Positions 31,190 to 37,073 of a stretch of DNA of 64,000 nt are shown here, in pieces. Below the pieces are notes generated by a model. It saw nothing but the letters and a program-made list of their open reading frames with translations, was not told where the DNA came from and made no database searches. Source of the stretch: Escherichia phage PSD2001. Each line of letters starts with the position of its first letter. Position 1 is the stretch's first letter. The position numbers were made by a program, and so were the translations under genes. The stretch is taken from the sequence record OK254198.1; one strand, 5' to 3'.

Positions 31190-32218
31190 CTAAACTTTTG
31201 CGTACTTCGAAAGTCGCATTCTCGCCATCAATCCTTGAGCAACGTTATCGGCCATATATGATTCGATTTGTTCAGGGGTTGCCCCTTCTGATTTAACCAT
31301 CTCATTTATGTCTTTTGTATGCCATGGCGCATTGTCCCAGAACATAACAGCTTCGCCAGCTTCAACGAGCTTCTTCATACGTTTAATCGTATCCGGATGT
31401 CTTGGCTCGTTGTCCATCACCCACACTCTGGTTTCTGGATAAGGAACAGCTTCTAATGCTAATGTTCCACCGGTTATCGCAATGCTGTTAGGGATAAACA
31501 AACTATCAATCGGACCTTCCATTACCCATACACGTTTACGCTCATCAATCTTGTCTACGCCATAGACTTTGGAAGCTTCTGGGTGAGCTTTGATTGTGAT
31601 ATATTTTTGTGGTGCATCTTTGCGAAGAGCTCGTCCTTGGAAAGATTCGATTTCTTTTTTGCCGTTGAAGATAGGAATAACCAAGCGTGGTTCATTCGTT
31701 TCATTCTTATACGTCCCAGGATTAACGGAGTTAACTAATGCAGGCCATTGGTTTGTAAACCATAGTCGGTTCCAAACATTGCTTGGAATACATCGACTTT
31801 TTACATACTTAACTATCGGATGTGCTTCTGGTAAAGTATCGAGTCTTTCACAAAAAGCAAGCTGCTCGATAACCGGAGTTTTTTCTGGTTCTTTCGGAGT
31901 TTCAATGACTTCATTGCGTTGTCGCCCGAAGGCGTTCTCCTTGTACTTCTCAACCATATATTCCCGGTGTAAATCAGGCTCAAACTCTTTTATGTATTTG
32001 CTTATATGCGTGGAGTAGTCACAGTTAAAACATTTCACATAAACCGCACCATCAGACGGATTGGTATACGCCCAGAATCGAGCCTTGTGTGAATCTTTCT
32101 GGGAGTCCCCGCAAACCTTACAACGACAGTTTGCTTTAAATGTGCTCCCGGTGACTTCTCTATAACGTGGTTGATACGATAAAGCTCTGACTGCAAATTC
32201 TTTATCAATATATGACAT
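31190..32218 (-). CDS. 61: DNA primase gp61
   Basis: 342 aa (same as T4 gp61); N-terminal zinc ribbon CRCKVCGD...CFNCDY followed by a Toprim region. Confidence 0.9.
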   Translation of the reverse strand: MSYIDKEFAVRALSYQPRYREVTGSTFKANCRCKVCGDSQKDSHKARFWAYTNPSDGAVYVKCFNCDYSTHISKYIKEFEPDLHREYMVEKYKENAFGRQRNEVIETPKEPEKTPVIEQLAFCERLDTLPEAHPIVKYVKSRCIPSNVWNRLWFTNQWPALVNSVNPGTYKNETNEPRLVIPIFNGKKEIESFQGRALRKDAPQKYITIKAHPEASKVYGVDKIDERKRVWVMEGPIDSLFIPNSIAITGGTLALEAVPYPETRVWVMDNEPRHPDTIKRMKKLVEAGEAVMFWDNAPWHTKDINEMVKSEGATPEQIESYMADNVAQGLMARMRLSKYAKV

Positions 32219-32436: not shown

Positions 32437-32628
32437 TTATACAACGAAGATAGCTTTATCACCATTTGCATCAGTCACTTCATAAGTGTCTTCATGATAC
32501 AACGGAATAATCCAGGTAACACCATCATCAGCGATAACATGGATTGCTTCTTGGTCTTGCGACACGATTTCATATTCTTCAAAAATCTGGAAGACCGAAA
32601 TCTTAGAGCCCGTACACATTGCACTCAT
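32437..32628 (-). CDS. Hypothetical protein (63 aa)
   Basis: Minus-strand ORF in the 61-41 interval. Confidence 0.35.
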   Translation of the reverse strand: MSAMCTGSKISVFQIFEEYEIVSQDQEAIHVIADDGVTWIIPLYHEDTYEVTDANGDKAIFVV

Positions 32629-32824
32629 ATTGTTCCCTTCTTTTAATTAGTTGACGATGCGCCTTTTTAAGTTTACGAATCTGGCGTTTAGTTGGTCGAG
32701 CAACGTAAGCTTGAGTAGTTACTCGTCCAAAAACTCCATACTTGGGAGACGGCGTATCAATAAAGACTTCCCATTGGCAAGAGTAACTATATATTGCTTT
32801 AGAGAATTGGGTCAAAACAAACAT
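32603..32824 (-). CDS. Hypothetical protein (73 aa)
   Basis: Minus-strand ORF, basic. Confidence 0.4.
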   Translation of the reverse strand: MFVLTQFSKAIYSYSCQWEVFIDTPSPKYGVFGRVTTQAYVARPTKRQIRKLKKAHRQLIKRREQYECNVYGL

Positions 32825-32825
32825 A

Positions 32826-33179
32826 TTAACCTCGCTTCATGAAGGCATTAAAAATCTGGTCGTCGACAGACTGTTCTTGAGCTTTGACCCAAGCCCCTTC
32901 CAAAATGTCATTTGCTTCAGTAGATAGCATGACCCCAATTTCAGGGTTTCCGGTTATCCATGCTGCACAATCACGTACATTCTTTTTATCAAATGGATAG
33001 CCGCGAGTATCTTCATAAGGTCCATTCATTACCATAAATGAGCGAGCCTTTATGATAACACCATCTTTAACGATAATATAACCAATCGCCTGATTAAACC
33101 GAGGCTCACGAAATTCATAATGAGCATTACCATCATTATTGCTCGTCAGTTCAAAATTCAGAAAATTATAATAACTCAT
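32826..33179 (-). CDS. Hypothetical protein (117 aa) ending SVDDQIFNAFMKRG
   Basis: C-terminal 13 aa and about 40 nt of 3' sequence are near-identical to the 3' end of the adjacent gene. Confidence 0.5.
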   Translation of the reverse strand: MSYYNFLNFELTSNNDGNAHYEFREPRFNQAIGYIIVKDGVIIKARSFMVMNGPYEDTRGYPFDKKNVRDCAAWITGNPEIGVMLSTEANDILEGAWVKAQEQSVDDQIFNAFMKRG

Positions 33180-33180
33180 A

Positions 33181-33621
33181 TTAATCTCGCTTCATGAAAG
33201 CATTAAAAATCTGGTCGTCAACTGAATAAACAGGGGTTTCCAGAAGTTTCAAAAGACTGTTTTTGATGTACTTACCAGGGATACCCATATTAACAATACT
33301 GTCATTCAATTCATTATCTGGGATGATGTCTTTAAATTCAAACCCGTCAAACTCAACCTTGTCAGGAATACCGTCAGCGAAAAAATAAACCAATTGGTGC
33401 ATTGTATTGCGCGAAAATAATTTAGACTTGACCGCAATAAGTTCTTGCCAATGGTTTAATTCTTTGTTAAGAAGTTTATGAGCAAACGTAATTCTATTGT
33501 CACTATCGACAAGAAAATAACCCAGGTATTGAATGGGTTCGTCGCTCCAAAACATCCTGTATGCTTGTGCATTTTGATTTTTACAACGAAGTTTTTTGAT
33601 AACTAAATTTCTGTTAATCAT
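33181..33621 (-). CDS. Hypothetical protein (146 aa) ending SVDDQIFNAFMKRD
   Basis: Start at the ATG at 33621 (AGGTGA Shine-Dalgarno), 1 nt after the upstream stop; shares its C-terminal tail with the previous gene. Confidence 0.5.
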   Translation of the reverse strand: MINRNLVIKKLRCKNQNAQAYRMFWSDEPIQYLGYFLVDSDNRITFAHKLLNKELNHWQELIAVKSKLFSRNTMHQLVYFFADGIPDKVEFDGFEFKDIIPDNELNDSIVNMGIPGKYIKNSLLKLLETPVYSVDDQIFNAFMKRD

Positions 33622-33622
33622 T

Positions 33623-33916
33623 TTATTCACCTGTAACCCATTGAACAATCTTGCTGTTGTCAAATGAAGCATCGCAATACAGAACATAGTTATACTGCAT
33701 AACGTCACCAGAAGCCAGTTGGTCAGATACTTCTTTAACCATATCAGGGTGGTCACGTTTAGTAATGTTCATGATATCAGCATAAATCTGATGTTCAACA
33801 TCGGTCTGGTCAGCAGTCATGGACCACTCACAAAGGTCTTTATCAAGTCCAGCAGTAACTGGAGCTGTACCACATGATGCTACGGTAAGAATTGCTGCGA
33901 TTAATAACTTTTTCAT
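33623..33916 (-). CDS. Secreted/lipoprotein-like small protein (97 aa), possibly Spackle (Sp)-like
   Basis: Signal peptide MKKLLIAAILTVASCG; four Cys; size and position in the 61-41 interval match T4 sp. Unverified. Confidence 0.4.
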   Translation of the reverse strand: MKKLLIAAILTVASCGTAPVTAGLDKDLCEWSMTADQTDVEHQIYADIMNITKRDHPDMVKEVSDQLASGDVMQYNYVLYCDASFDNSKIVQWVTGE

Positions 33917-33974
33917 TTCAATCTCCTCAGTAGTTGATAGGGATAATATACTGCATTATCCCTTTGATGTACAC

Positions 33975-34316
33975 TTATTTTTCACCTTCAACTGAAAAAC
34001 CGGTCAATTTGTAATATTCGGCACGTGCAATATGAAGAGCTGCTTCAATATCAGTAAGGCAGATTTCTTCATTTAACAGTTGCGCTTCAACGGTCAAAAT
34101 CAGATTACGCAATGCGGTACCCTTACGCATGTCTACTTTATGAATTAGCTTGTCATCAACAAAAGCTTCAACCAGCGCATTATAGTTATCAGCAGTCTTC
34201 TGGACATACCAGTGAATACCTGCGGGGTGGAACATGCTAGAACGTTCAAAAGATGGTACACCAACAGCACTCACTTTGATTGTTACTTTTACGCGGTCTT
34301 CTGGATTAAAAGCCAT
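33975..34316 (-). CDS. Hypothetical protein (113 aa), paralog of the following small gene
   Basis: YNALVEAFVDDKLIHKVDMRKG parallels NNALVKAFVNDNKVFECDYR in ORF 34317-34529. Confidence 0.45.
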   Translation of the reverse strand: MAFNPEDRVKVTIKVSAVGVPSFERSSMFHPAGIHWYVQKTADNYNALVEAFVDDKLIHKVDMRKGTALRNLILTVEAQLLNEEICLTDIEAALHIARAEYYKLTGFSVEGEK

Positions 34317-34529
34317 TTAGATTTCCTCAGATAAGTGGATACGATAATCACATTCAAAAACTTTATTGTCATTAACAAAGGCTTTCACCAGCGCATTATT
34401 CACTTCTGCATACTGCACTGTAACCCATTCAATCATATTTTGGTCACTAACATCCAGCGCAGTTTCTTTGGTAAACATATTACCATTTTCAAACCAACCA
34501 ATAAACACTACGTTCTCTAATTTATACAT
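34317..34529 (-). CDS. Small protein (70 aa), possible Dmd-like antitoxin
   Basis: Size and position adjacent to the 61.x/sp block fit T4 dmd; assignment is positional and low confidence. Confidence 0.3.
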   Translation of the reverse strand: MYKLENVVFIGWFENGNMFTKETALDVSDQNMIEWVTVQYAEVNNALVKAFVNDNKVFECDYRIHLSEEI

Positions 34530-34847
34530 TTAGATTTCCTCACAAAACGCCCAGTCTGCATGATAAACTGTTGCGCCTTTAGTATCATTTAAACAAACCA
34601 CGTCAACAGGTGCAATCACACGATAAAGACGGGGTTCTCCTCCATACGAGCGAGCTGCTCTTCCTGCATAGATACGCGCCAAACCAATATCTTCAGTAAA
34701 AAACACACGCCCTAAATTTTTCTTACGCCCAACTTCTGACAGAACACCAGTTACATCAGGAGGACAAAGCATATTTTGGATTCCAGCATTAGAGCTTGAC
34801 CCATGATAATAAACTTTGTATTCTGCCTTGCAATCAATGGTTTTCAT
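34530..34847 (-). CDS. Hypothetical protein (105 aa)
   Basis: Minus-strand ORF preceded by the shared leader. Confidence 0.45.
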   Translation of the reverse strand: MKTIDCKAEYKVYYHGSSSNAGIQNMLCPPDVTGVLSEVGRKKNLGRVFFTEDIGLARIYAGRAARSYGGEPRLYRVIAPVDVVCLNDTKGATVYHADWAFCEEI

Positions 34848-34885
34848 TTTATTCTCCAGTAGTTGATAGAGTCATTATAACATAA

Positions 34886-34906
34886 GAAAAAGGGGCTGTA
34901 AGCCCC
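34886..34906 (-). terminator. Rho-independent terminator
   Basis: GGGGC-ttaca-GCCCC hairpin followed by TTTTTT on the minus strand. Confidence 0.55.
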
Positions 34907-34915
34907 TTTATTCAC

Positions 34916-35218
34916 TTACGCCAACTCATAGTTGTGCATAGTCAGACAACGAATTTTCCCAGTAGTTGGGTGCATAACAGTCACACTAATTGTGTAATCA
35001 TCGCACACGTTAACAAAAGGTTCAGCGATAACATATACTTCACCGCCTGCAAGCAGATACTCACGAAGAGAGCTGCGAACAGATGAAGGTTGAACATCGC
35101 TTTTGAGCTTTATTAATTTACCAGTTTGAATGCCTGATGCGATAAGAGCAGCACAGTTTTCATCACGGCGAGCGAATTGTCCAAAATAGTAACGATTCAT
35201 GTCGGTTTGATTAAACAT
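34916..35218 (-). CDS. Hypothetical protein (100 aa)
   Basis: First ORF downstream of promoter cassette copy B. Confidence 0.45.
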   Translation of the reverse strand: MFNQTDMNRYYFGQFARRDENCAALIASGIQTGKLIKLKSDVQPSSVRSSLREYLLAGGEVYVIAEPFVNVCDDYTISVTVMHPTTGKIRCLTMHNYELA

Positions 35219-35246
35219 ATGGTTTTCCTTTTAACAGTTGGTTTAT

Positions 35247-35299
35247 TGTGTAACTCAGTATGGAATCATTATGTCCTAAGACAAGGGGGTTGTACACTA
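35247..35299 (-). repeat. 53-bp early promoter cassette, copy B (identical to 8924-8976)
   Basis: Exact 53-nt identity with copy A. Confidence 0.8.
35268..35297 (-). promoter_or_regulatory. T4-type early promoter
   Basis: Minus strand: GTGTAC, 18 nt, CATAAT. Confidence 0.45.
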
Positions 35300-35545
35300 T
35301 TTTAATTCATTAATTAAATGAAAATCTTGTGCATTGAAAGTAATGAAAAAATAATCATTCCCTTCAACTGAAGCATGACAAGCAACACTACACCAGCGCC
35401 TTGCTCTGTTCAATGAGCAATCCAAAATTTTAAAAGGCTTCAGACCAACAATGTCAGCTGTTCTTTTATTATGCTCACAAATATCAGCATACTTTTGGAG
35501 AGCTTCTTCAGATTTGAACTGGTAATGCACATTAACTAATAACAT
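35297..35545 (-). CDS. Hypothetical protein (82 aa)
   Basis: Minus-strand ORF preceded by the shared leader hairpin and a GTTTACA/TACTAT promoter. Confidence 0.45.
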   Translation of the reverse strand: MLLVNVHYQFKSEEALQKYADICEHNKRTADIVGLKPFKILDCSLNRARRWCSVACHASVEGNDYFFITFNAQDFHLINELK

Positions 35546-35613
35546 TTTATTATCCTCATCAGTAGTTGATGGGATAATAGTACACTCTTTTTATGGTGAT
35601 GTAAACCCCTAAA

Positions 35614-35632
35614 TGAAAAAGACCCGAAGGTC
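35614..35632 (-). terminator. Rho-independent terminator downstream of gene 41
   Basis: GACC-cgaa-GGTC hairpin followed by TTTTT on the minus strand. Confidence 0.5.
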
Positions 35633-35633
35633 T

Positions 35634-37073
35634 TTAGAATTTCATTTGAGCAGCAAGGTCGTCCAGGTCGCTCCTGTTGACCCTGGTTTGTCTATTCATT
35701 TCAGCCTGGCGATTCATCTCACCGGTGGCTTCTTTAACCGTAGGGCCTTGTTTAGGAGCTGAATCATCATCAATCTCGTACCAGCGCTGATTGCCTTTCT
35801 TAACACCCATCTTGAATTTATTATAGTAGTTCTTATCGCCATAACGAGACTTAAGCTGTTTGATTAACTGTAGTCCCATTTGAGCGAATTCTTCGGTCTC
35901 AACAACACCCAACATAAAGTCGGCCGTGTGAGCAATACCAAAGGATTCTGCGATGTCAGCCATATCAATCTCAGCTGCAACGTTTGCGCCCCTTGTTGTC
36001 TGCGCTGCAGTCCACAGGACTACATTTTTCTCGACCGCCAGACCACGAAGTTCTTCTGCAACCATCTTAATCAGACCGTAACTGTTTTCGGTAAACGTTT
36101 TCAGTCTTGAGCTTGCACAGATTGCCAGGTAGTCAACAATAATCACATCCGGCACAAACCCTTGCTTCAGTTTGTATTCATTCAATAATGCACGGAAGGT
36201 ATCCGCATGAGCACCGCCAGTTGGATATTGTTTTATCTTCAGAGTCCCAAGAGTCCCGGCTGCACGCCATTTTTCCATCTTAGCTTTATATTCCGCCCAT
36301 GACACATGACCTTCATCAATATCATCCAGAGATACATCCAGCAAGTTGGCATCAATACGTTTGGCACATACTTCTTCAGCCATTTCCATGCTTATATAAA
36401 GCACGTTATGACCAGTCTGAAGATAGTCGGCCGCTAACGAACAAAGTCCCAGAGATTTCCCGACGTTGGTCCCGGCCAGTAAAACGTTCTCTGTGCCGTA
36501 CTCAACTCCACCCTTCGTGATTTTATTCAGGATGTTAATGCGGAACGGAACCTTTTTCGATTTGTTCAGATAAGTCTGGAATCGAGCTTCGTAATCGTTT
36601 AACCAATCATGGCCCAGAGCAGAGTCAAAACAGATAGACAATGCATCGCGCATGATGTCGGGGATAGCACCAATATCCGGGATTCGTTTATCACGTTTAT
36701 CTTTCGGAAGTTCGGCATTACTCTGGATTTCGATAATCCTGGATGTGGCATTGAACATCGCAGATTTCTGCACATACTTCTCGGTTTCTCTAACCAACCA
36801 TTCTTGGTCTTCTGGAGTATCGGCCAGGACTCCTAAGAGTTTCTTTGTGCCTTCATATTCGACTTCAGAAAGGTCAGAACTGTCGAGCGCGATATCAAGT
36901 GCAGTCTTAGTTGGTACCGCTTGATATTCTTTTACGTGTTCGTTAATCGTATTAAAAAGGGTCTTCGCGGGACCCTTTTCAAAATATGTGTTATTCAGAT
37001 ACGGCCAGACTTTAACAAAATATTCCTTGTTAAAGAGTAGCTGGGATAAAATAGTTTCTACCACTTCCACCAC
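35634..37073 (-). CDS. 41: Replicative DNA helicase gp41 (DnaB family)
   Basis: 479 aa; Walker A GTNVGKS; LYISMEMAEEVCAKRIDAN, VDYL, KQYPTGGA match T4 gp41. Confidence 0.9.
   Translation of the reverse strand: MVEVVETILSQLLFNKEYFVKVWPYLNNTYFEKGPAKTLFNTINEHVKEYQAVPTKTALDIALDSSDLSEVEYEGTKKLLGVLADTPEDQEWLVRETEKYVQKSAMFNATSRIIEIQSNAELPKDKRDKRIPDIGAIPDIMRDALSICFDSALGHDWLNDYEARFQTYLNKSKKVPFRINILNKITKGGVEYGTENVLLAGTNVGKSLGLCSLAADYLQTGHNVLYISMEMAEEVCAKRIDANLLDVSLDDIDEGHVSWAEYKAKMEKWRAAGTLGTLKIKQYPTGGAHADTFRALLNEYKLKQGFVPDVIIVDYLAICASSRLKTFTENSYGLIKMVAEELRGLAVEKNVVLWTAAQTTRGANVAAEIDMADIAESFGIAHTADFMLGVVETEEFAQMGLQLIKQLKSRYGDKNYYNKFKMGVKKGNQRWYEIDDDSAPKQGPTVKEATGEMNRQAEMNRQTRVNRSDLDDLAAQMKF

Follow-up and report, generated by a model that had tools for sequence, protein, structure and literature searches.

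A Dmd-fold paralogue fused to a two-helix module next to dmd in a T4-like coliphage, a candidate toxin inhibitor

The bacteriophage T4 protein Dmd is a small acidic alpha/beta protein that acts as an antitoxin against the Escherichia coli toxins RnlA and LsoA. It enters the groove that separates the TBP2/NRD from the HEPN/DBD domain in these toxins and blocks their RNase activity. To our knowledge, Dmd was the first phage-encoded protein antitoxin to be described, and it is among the few for which a complex with the toxin has been solved. Wan et al. reportedly found in 2016 that T4 Dmd requires residues W31 and N40 to bind LsoA, and the protein is thought to mimic the substrate. Here, the dmd region of Escherichia phage PSD2001 is analysed in a stretch of 64,000 nucleotides (nt) of record OK254198.1 (hereafter the window), in which dmd, encoding 70 residues, adjoins a gene for a 113-residue protein that combines a diverged Dmd-fold domain with a C-terminal module of two helices.

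The window comes from a T4-like coliphage assigned to Gaprivervirus. Its region 33100-35700 has 97.8% identity to Escherichia phage 212 and 96-97% to UPEC01, VR20 and SP18. The two genes lie between primase gene 61 and helicase gene 41, and every gene of the region is carried by the minus strand. In T4, Laub and colleagues named this region an anti-toxin-antitoxin (anti-TA) island and observed that the dmd-tifA locus amplifies in tandem via microhomologies under selection (PMC9391042). With its spackle gene, a TifA homologue and two proteins with AdfA-like tails, the locus in the window corresponds to that island. The T4 proteins TifA (gp61.4, a ToxN inhibitor) and AdfA (gp61.2, anti-DarT) are likewise small early accessory proteins of the gene 41-61 interval which, like the 113-residue gene, vary between relatives, and direct inhibition of a toxin has been proposed or demonstrated for them (PMC9391042). 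Neither has a sequence relationship to the 113-residue protein, and TifA obtains 3 bits from the Dmd profile.

Dmd and the adjoining Dmd-fold protein

By its sequence, the 70-residue protein is Dmd, the product of an ordinary gene that is already known and labelled dmd in the records of relatives. It scores 72.8 bits against the Pfam family PF17587 (cut-off 27) and matches phrog_2102 with an expectation (E) value of 1.9e-33, RB69 Dmd (PDB 5i8j) with E 1.4e-22 over residues 1-63 and T4 Dmd in the LsoA complex (PDB 5hy3_B) with E 1.3e-16. All invariant columns of a family alignment of 19 Dmd sequences (24 including the initiator methionine, 23 without it) are held, among them W35 and N44, the counterparts of T4 W31 and N40. 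The protein is a full member of the family that comprises T4 Dmd (gp61.5, 5hy3 chain B), RB69 Dmd and PF17587, with about 60-75% identity to the solved or listed homologues. A preliminary description of this stretch, made from the letters alone, had proposed the Dmd assignment with reservations from the size and position of the gene. The identity stands on the Pfam, PHROG and PDB matches, whereas the positional argument is loose, since three other genes separate gene 41 from dmd in the window while dmd directly follows gene 41 in T4.

That the adjacent 70- and 113-residue proteins share a segment, as had been noted there, is borne out. BLASTP aligns residues 6-63 of Dmd with residues 16-64 of the 113-residue protein (18 of 58 positions identical, E 1e-6), and the Smith-Waterman score of 62, compared with a mean of 24.7 (standard deviation 4.4) for shuffled sequences, was reached in none of 5000 shuffles, corresponding to a Gumbel p of about 1e-5. 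A hidden Markov model of the Dmd family searched against the 1071 six-frame open reading frame (ORF) segments of the window retrieves these two ORFs only, with 139.8 and 23.8 bits, the next segment scoring 3.6 bits. Only two PDB sequences match the 113-residue protein below E 10, both of them Dmd entries, and the match to the Dmd PHROG has E 9.4e-6. Against PF17587 the protein scores 19.1 bits, which is under the cut-off of 27, and only profile positions 29-59 are matched. Comparison of the alignment of its family with that of Dmd by hhalign gives a probability of 89.9% (E 1.7e-6, columns 31-65 against 30-64). The orthologue in VR7 and VR25, about 62% identical, matches the Dmd profile independently in the same register with 14.6 bits. 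Within the shared segment, 34 nt of the DNA align in frame with dmd at 88% identity.

The likeness extends beyond this patch of 20 residues across the whole Dmd fold, as seen by structure comparison. An AlphaFold2 model of the 113-residue protein, computed from an input alignment that held no Dmd sequence, reaches a mean predicted local distance difference test (pLDDT) score of 82.8, and of about 90 across residues 11-60. Its topology consists of two strands (residues 9-17 and 23-29), a helix (31-45), two further strands (47-53 and 56-62) and two helices (66-80 and 87-105). When the model is searched against the PDB with Foldseek, three Dmd chains are the only matches below E 0.001, with target template modelling scores of 0.86-0.92, and the fourth match has E 0.34; the structural match takes in all 57 residues of T4 Dmd. 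In a search of BFVD, the VR25 orthologue ranks first, followed by Dmd of phage AR1. Homology of the protein to Dmd and its two-part architecture are very probable.

The Dmd invariants were mapped onto the paralogue through the register of the PDB-sequence and VR7/profile alignments. Those kept are W36, A42, A47, L48, V49, A51, F52, D62 and R64. They belong to the helix and to strands 3 and 4, W36 is the equivalent of T4 W31, and V53 also counts among the core residues that persist. The N-terminal hairpin, by contrast, has lost all eight of its invariants (F9, G11, W12, N15, M18, F19, K21 and E22); the hairpin motif F-x-G-W-F-x-N..M-F-T-K-E is missing, and both hhalign and HMMER leave this half unaligned. 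The invariant asparagine of Dmd (N44 in the window, N40 in T4) is replaced by Tyr45 in the window paralogue and by His in VR7, and at two invariant positions the charge has changed sign (K49 to E and E59 to K). The net charge of Dmd proteins is -1 to -7, that of the Dmd-like domain +1 to +3 and that of the appended module -4 to -6.

Residues 1-65 of the paralogue share with T4 and RB69 Dmd the fold, as predicted, and the core residues of the helix, strand 3 and strand 4, and its gene adjoins dmd and is apparently co-transcribed with it; in contrast, the hairpin motif and the invariant asparagine are lacking, the domain is basic instead of acidic, and a helical module of 48 residues is added, which carries the protein beyond the 60-70 residues of single-domain Dmd. 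Because it falls short of the Pfam cut-off and departs from the family in the hairpin motif, the asparagine and the single-domain organisation, the 113-residue protein is best described as a Dmd-fold paralogue outside PF17587 as defined. The preliminary description had spoken of a duplicated, diverged copy. It was right about a diverged Dmd homologue and wrong about a plain duplicate, as the homologue is fused to a two-helix module with its own distribution. The lost acidic character and the replaced asparagine may be read as a change of specificity and not as the marks of a redundant copy.

Two other assignments of the gene were rejected. An equivalence with T4 61.4 (tifA) is contradicted by VR7, which has both genes side by side, and by the separate TifA homologue of the window (Table 1). 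A match of the 113-residue protein to AbiEii in PADLOC (E 0.004, 14.9 bits) was dismissed as chance.

The C-terminal two-helix module

Residues 66-113 of the 113-residue protein match phrog_27940. In the Dhakavirus ESCO10, a free-standing gene for 50 residues (UPW37748), 67% identical to the module, is placed like the 113-residue gene, with dmd on one side and spackle on the other. Free-standing module genes for 54-55 residues are found on phage contigs of 135-142 kb, where all of them overlap the stop codon of a preceding gene that differs from case to case and to which they are presumably coupled in translation. In about 69 Phapecoctavirus genomes, the module forms the C-terminus of proteins of 99-179 residues with N-terminal regions unrelated to Dmd. 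The ESCO10 protein, phrog_27940 and the Phapecoctavirus proteins represent the same module at 45-67% identity, always at the extreme C-terminus and with the ending (S/I)(V/I)EGEK, and differ from the 113-residue protein in being without a Dmd-like domain.

In an AlphaFold2 model of one Phapecoctavirus protein (P0027), the first helix of the module prolongs a helix of about 60 residues; the pLDDT lies below 50 across the N-terminal 80 residues. The module might be an oligomerisation or docking hairpin. The Phapecoctavirus N-terminal regions were considered as Dmd-like on account of a PA..W.V.K match in a MAFFT alignment, but this was discarded at an hhalign probability of 0.1%, and a repeat protein of 620 residues (P0025) that was matched through a W..AKS.DNYNW motif proved spurious.

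In two unrelated phage contexts, genes for acidic peptides with a C-x2-C...C-x2-C pattern (46 and 42 residues) precede and overlap the free-standing modules. They lie at positions 2349-2489 of the ESCO10 locus (L005), where the gene for the 50-residue module overlaps that for the 46-residue peptide, and at positions 2380-2508 of a second phage contig (L007). Kinship of the two zinc-ribbon-like peptides was rejected as not significant (E 0.47), only the cysteine pattern being common to them. The annotation of the ESCO10 record (OM386655.1) looks scrambled: helicase gene 41 appears as 'DNA topoisomerase II large subunit', spackle as 'modifier of transcription', Dmd as 'zinc ribbon domain-containing protein' and the 50-residue module as 'modifier of suppressor tRNAs', and the names are untrustworthy.

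Distribution, origin and possible function of the paralogue

Full-length homologues of the 113-residue protein were found by tblastn in 14 of 50,697 phage records, ten of them at 96.5-100% identity and four at 62.6% (VR7 and VR25, each present twice), and the gene is restricted to a subset of Gaprivervirus phages. Each of the 14 records holds an intact ORF. The ratio of non-synonymous to synonymous substitution rates (dN/dS) relative to VR7 is about 0.12 for the gene and 0.127 for dmd, and six synonymous and two non-synonymous differences separate it from its counterpart in phage 212. On these values, the gene is under purifying selection.

SP18 is without the gene. Its flanks are nearly identical to those of the window, and a single clean indel of about 351 nt accounts for the difference, extending from codon 64 of dmd as far as the three final codons of the 113-residue gene. 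SP18 Dmd consequently ends in ...RSNEK, using the final GAAAAATAA of the paralogue, and the indel may be read as a deletion scar. Since SP18-type phages lack the gene between flanks that are nearly identical, natural 'knock-outs' of it exist. The gene is evidently missing also from CJ20, P479, RZ, DCP80 and P896, in which 86% of the region is recovered in two pieces and no tblastn match is obtained. The ending of the SP18-type Dmd (positions 1376-1579 of L004, compared with 33975-34340 of the window) thus differs from the ...RIHLSEEI of the window, and the metagenomic Dmd variants P0003 and P0014 also show an NEK tail.

The paralogue probably originated by duplication of dmd and fusion. Unequal crossing-over at 16-nt repeats that flank dmd would have produced the second copy, which would then have been fused to a neighbouring hairpin gene. 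Such a route of duplication is plausible because T4 amplifies dmd-tifA via microhomologies (PMC9391042).

A diverged copy of the Dmd fold that is fused to a two-helix module is a promising candidate for one more phage protein that inhibits a bacterial toxin. The reading favoured here, with a probability of roughly 0.55, is that the 113-residue protein is a stoichiometric inhibitor with a re-surfaced Dmd fold, directed against a host toxin or defence nuclease that Dmd does not cover. The head with the Dmd fold would act as a plug in the target, the helical hairpin would provide oligomerisation or a second contact, and the most economical guess for the target would be a Dmd-insensitive member of the RnlA/LsoA family; inhibitor function, target class and role of the hairpin are what we infer from the comparisons above. 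The broadened anti-toxin repertoire that the preliminary description had considered would fit the context of the anti-toxin island (PMC9391042) and the changed surface. A more specific version must be put tentatively, namely that a new antitoxin of phage origin is encoded here, with a target of its own, be it a Dmd-resistant RNase of the RnlA/LsoA family or an unrelated toxin, and that it arose from a dmd duplicate joined to a mobile hairpin module that would serve coliphages of two virus families.

Several points weigh against an inhibitor of this kind. Only about nine of the 23 Dmd invariants survive, all of them in the C-terminal half, and the mode of binding may therefore not be conserved. 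The match in fold is not fully independent of recognition by sequence, since AlphaFold2 was probably trained on 5hy3 and 5i8j (released 2016-2017). The family alignment is also shallow, with two full-length clusters among 1.84 billion cluster representatives; a word-index search with the single sequence found only one cluster, and an exhaustive search and an alignment query were used in addition. The natural loss in close relatives means that the gene is dispensable on their hosts. Finally, the module is found with quite different partners, and it, instead of the Dmd-like head, could therefore carry the function.

The last point leads to the alternative that survives best, although it is unlikely, according to which the helical hairpin is the functional core, engaged in host takeover or anti-defence, and the Dmd-like domain is one interchangeable head, with no toxin-antitoxin role needed. 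However, the head is constrained as well, for instance in an invariant HPAGIHWY...KTAD stretch, it descends from a protein known to inhibit toxins, and its gene is part of an island of anti-toxin genes. Somewhat more doubtful is the view that the protein is a redundant copy of Dmd, or one that raises its dosage, against the same RnlA and LsoA toxins, with a hairpin that adds only stability or avidity. Such a copy would be in keeping with the predicted fold, with the conserved tryptophan and with the apparently shared transcription unit, and experimental evolution of T4 meets a dosage problem at this locus by tandem amplification (PMC9391042). It does not sit well with the replacement of all eight hairpin invariants and of the asparagine, with the two reversed charges and the inverted charge of the domain, or with a score below the Pfam cut-off for Dmd; moreover, roughly 30% identity maintained under purifying selection is unlike a dosage copy.

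It is very improbable that a duplication of dmd merely left behind a non-functional gene in decay, for although the gene is missing in several near-identical phages and has a very narrow distribution, the ORF is intact throughout the 14 records, in two lineages only about 62% identical in protein, dN/dS is low and a good ribosome-binding site is kept at the start. Least credible of all is a resemblance through chance, convergence or a short gene-conversion patch in place of common ancestry of the whole domain: the strongest identity does fall in the 34-nt stretch, the patch is more Dmd-like in the window lineage than in VR7, and hhalign covers only columns 31-65, but the structural match spans the entire T4 Dmd, the codon identity in the patch is unremarkable (the same codon for six of the eight shared residues), and gene conversion is neither needed nor sufficient for the shared patch, since the more diverged VR7 copy still matches the Dmd profile in register.

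In the literature searched, no Dmd paralogue or Dmd-like protein is described in these phages, and Dmd is known, as far as the searches reach, as a single-copy, single-domain protein. A diverged and fused second copy kept under selection would show diversification of an inhibitor scaffold by tandem duplication, the same process that has been watched in real time at this locus in T4 (PMC9391042). If the more tentative version holds true, in which the protein is a new antitoxin with its own target, the hairpin module would be a common tail for interchangeable inhibitor heads in coliphages (Dmd-like, zinc-ribbon-like and others), and point to a modular way of building counter-defence proteins. 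As a candidate for a new anti-toxin specificity, the 113-residue protein lends itself readily to tests.

Genetic setting of the locus

The gene for the 105-residue protein, dmd and the 113-residue gene (Table 1) are joined by TAAATG stop-start junctions, at which a GAGGA ribosome-binding site is placed inside the tail of the preceding gene. Because the ribosome-binding site of TGAGGAAATCTAAATG lies inside the ...EEI* tail, the 105-residue protein and Dmd both end in EEI. The two 16-nt junctions are direct repeats on either side of dmd, the VR7 copy is flanked by similar repeats, and the junction core GAGGAAATCTAAATG is also found after dmd in ESCO10 (about 2333-2351 of L005). It is possible that these junctions act as recombination handles for gene shuffling. 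Upstream of the 105-residue gene, a promoter-like site composed of CTTACA, 17 nt, TG and TATAAT is the best sigma-70-like match of the region and may be active. The three genes would thus form one early transcription unit behind a sigma-70-like promoter, in which co-transcription and translational coupling are to be expected, and the stem-loop that follows the 113-residue gene would mark its end.

Table 1. Features of the dmd region, in order of transcription, with positions in the window
Feature	Position	Strand	Remarks
Helicase gene 41	35634-37073	-	First in transcription order
82-residue goF-like gene	35297-35545	-	Just downstream of gene 41
100-residue gene	34916-35218	-	
Terminator-like hairpin, then promoter-like site	34874-34909	-	Upstream of 105-residue gene; consensus match
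105-residue gene (phrog_2110)	34530-34847	-	First gene of apparent three-gene transcription unit; stop abuts dmd start (TAAATG)
Junction TGAGGAAATCTAAATG before dmd	34527-34542	-	Ribosome-binding site, stop, start; from sequence
dmd, 70 residues	34317-34529	-	Orthologue of T4 Dmd; Pfam, PHROG and PDB matches
Shared segment in Dmd, residues 44-63, NNALVKAFVNDNKVFECDYR	34341-34400	-	BLASTP, shuffles
Junction TGAGGAAATCTAAATG before 113-residue gene	34314-34329	-	Identical 16 nt; from sequence
113-residue gene	33975-34316	-	Dmd-fold paralogue; abuts dmd
Diverged Dmd-fold domain, residues 1-65	34122-34316	-	Strand, strand, helix, strand, strand
Shared segment in 113-residue protein, residues 45-66, YNALVEAFVDDKLIHKVDMRKG	34119-34184	-	BLASTP, shuffles
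Two-helix module, residues 66-113 and stop codon	33975-34121	-	Ends SVEGEK; helices 66-80 and 87-105 in model
Stem-loop GGGATAAT...ATTATCCC	33940-33962	-	Between stop of 113-residue gene and spackle; conserved in SP18
spackle	33623-33916	-	After 113-residue gene
146-residue gene	33181-33621	-	AdfA-like C-terminal tail
117-residue gene	32826-33179	-	AdfA-like C-terminal tail
73-residue gene, TifA homologue	32603-32824	-	39% identity to T4 TifA
Primase gene 61	31190-32218	-	Further downstream

The product of the 105-residue gene has no match in Pfam, the PDB sequences, NCBIfam or PADLOC. Homologues of this gene are noted in JS98 for the SP18 copy and in RB69 for the VR7 copy, and it is kept, uncharacterised, directly upstream of dmd in these phages. 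The 82-residue protein encoded closest to gene 41 matches the PHROG of the mRNA metabolism modulator goF with E 2e-20 and gives a weak, sub-threshold match to a CGNR zinc finger. At the other end of the region, the 73-residue ORF matches T4 TifA with E 1e-13 and contains the RPTKRQIR motif; it has moved away from the position beside dmd that tifA occupies in T4. What the adjacent 146- and 117-residue proteins have in common is confined to their last 13-14 residues, SVDDQIFNAFMKR(D/G), which recur at the C-terminus of T4 AdfA; their bodies are unrelated, and this pair represents a second case within the island of variable bodies with a conserved C-terminal tail.
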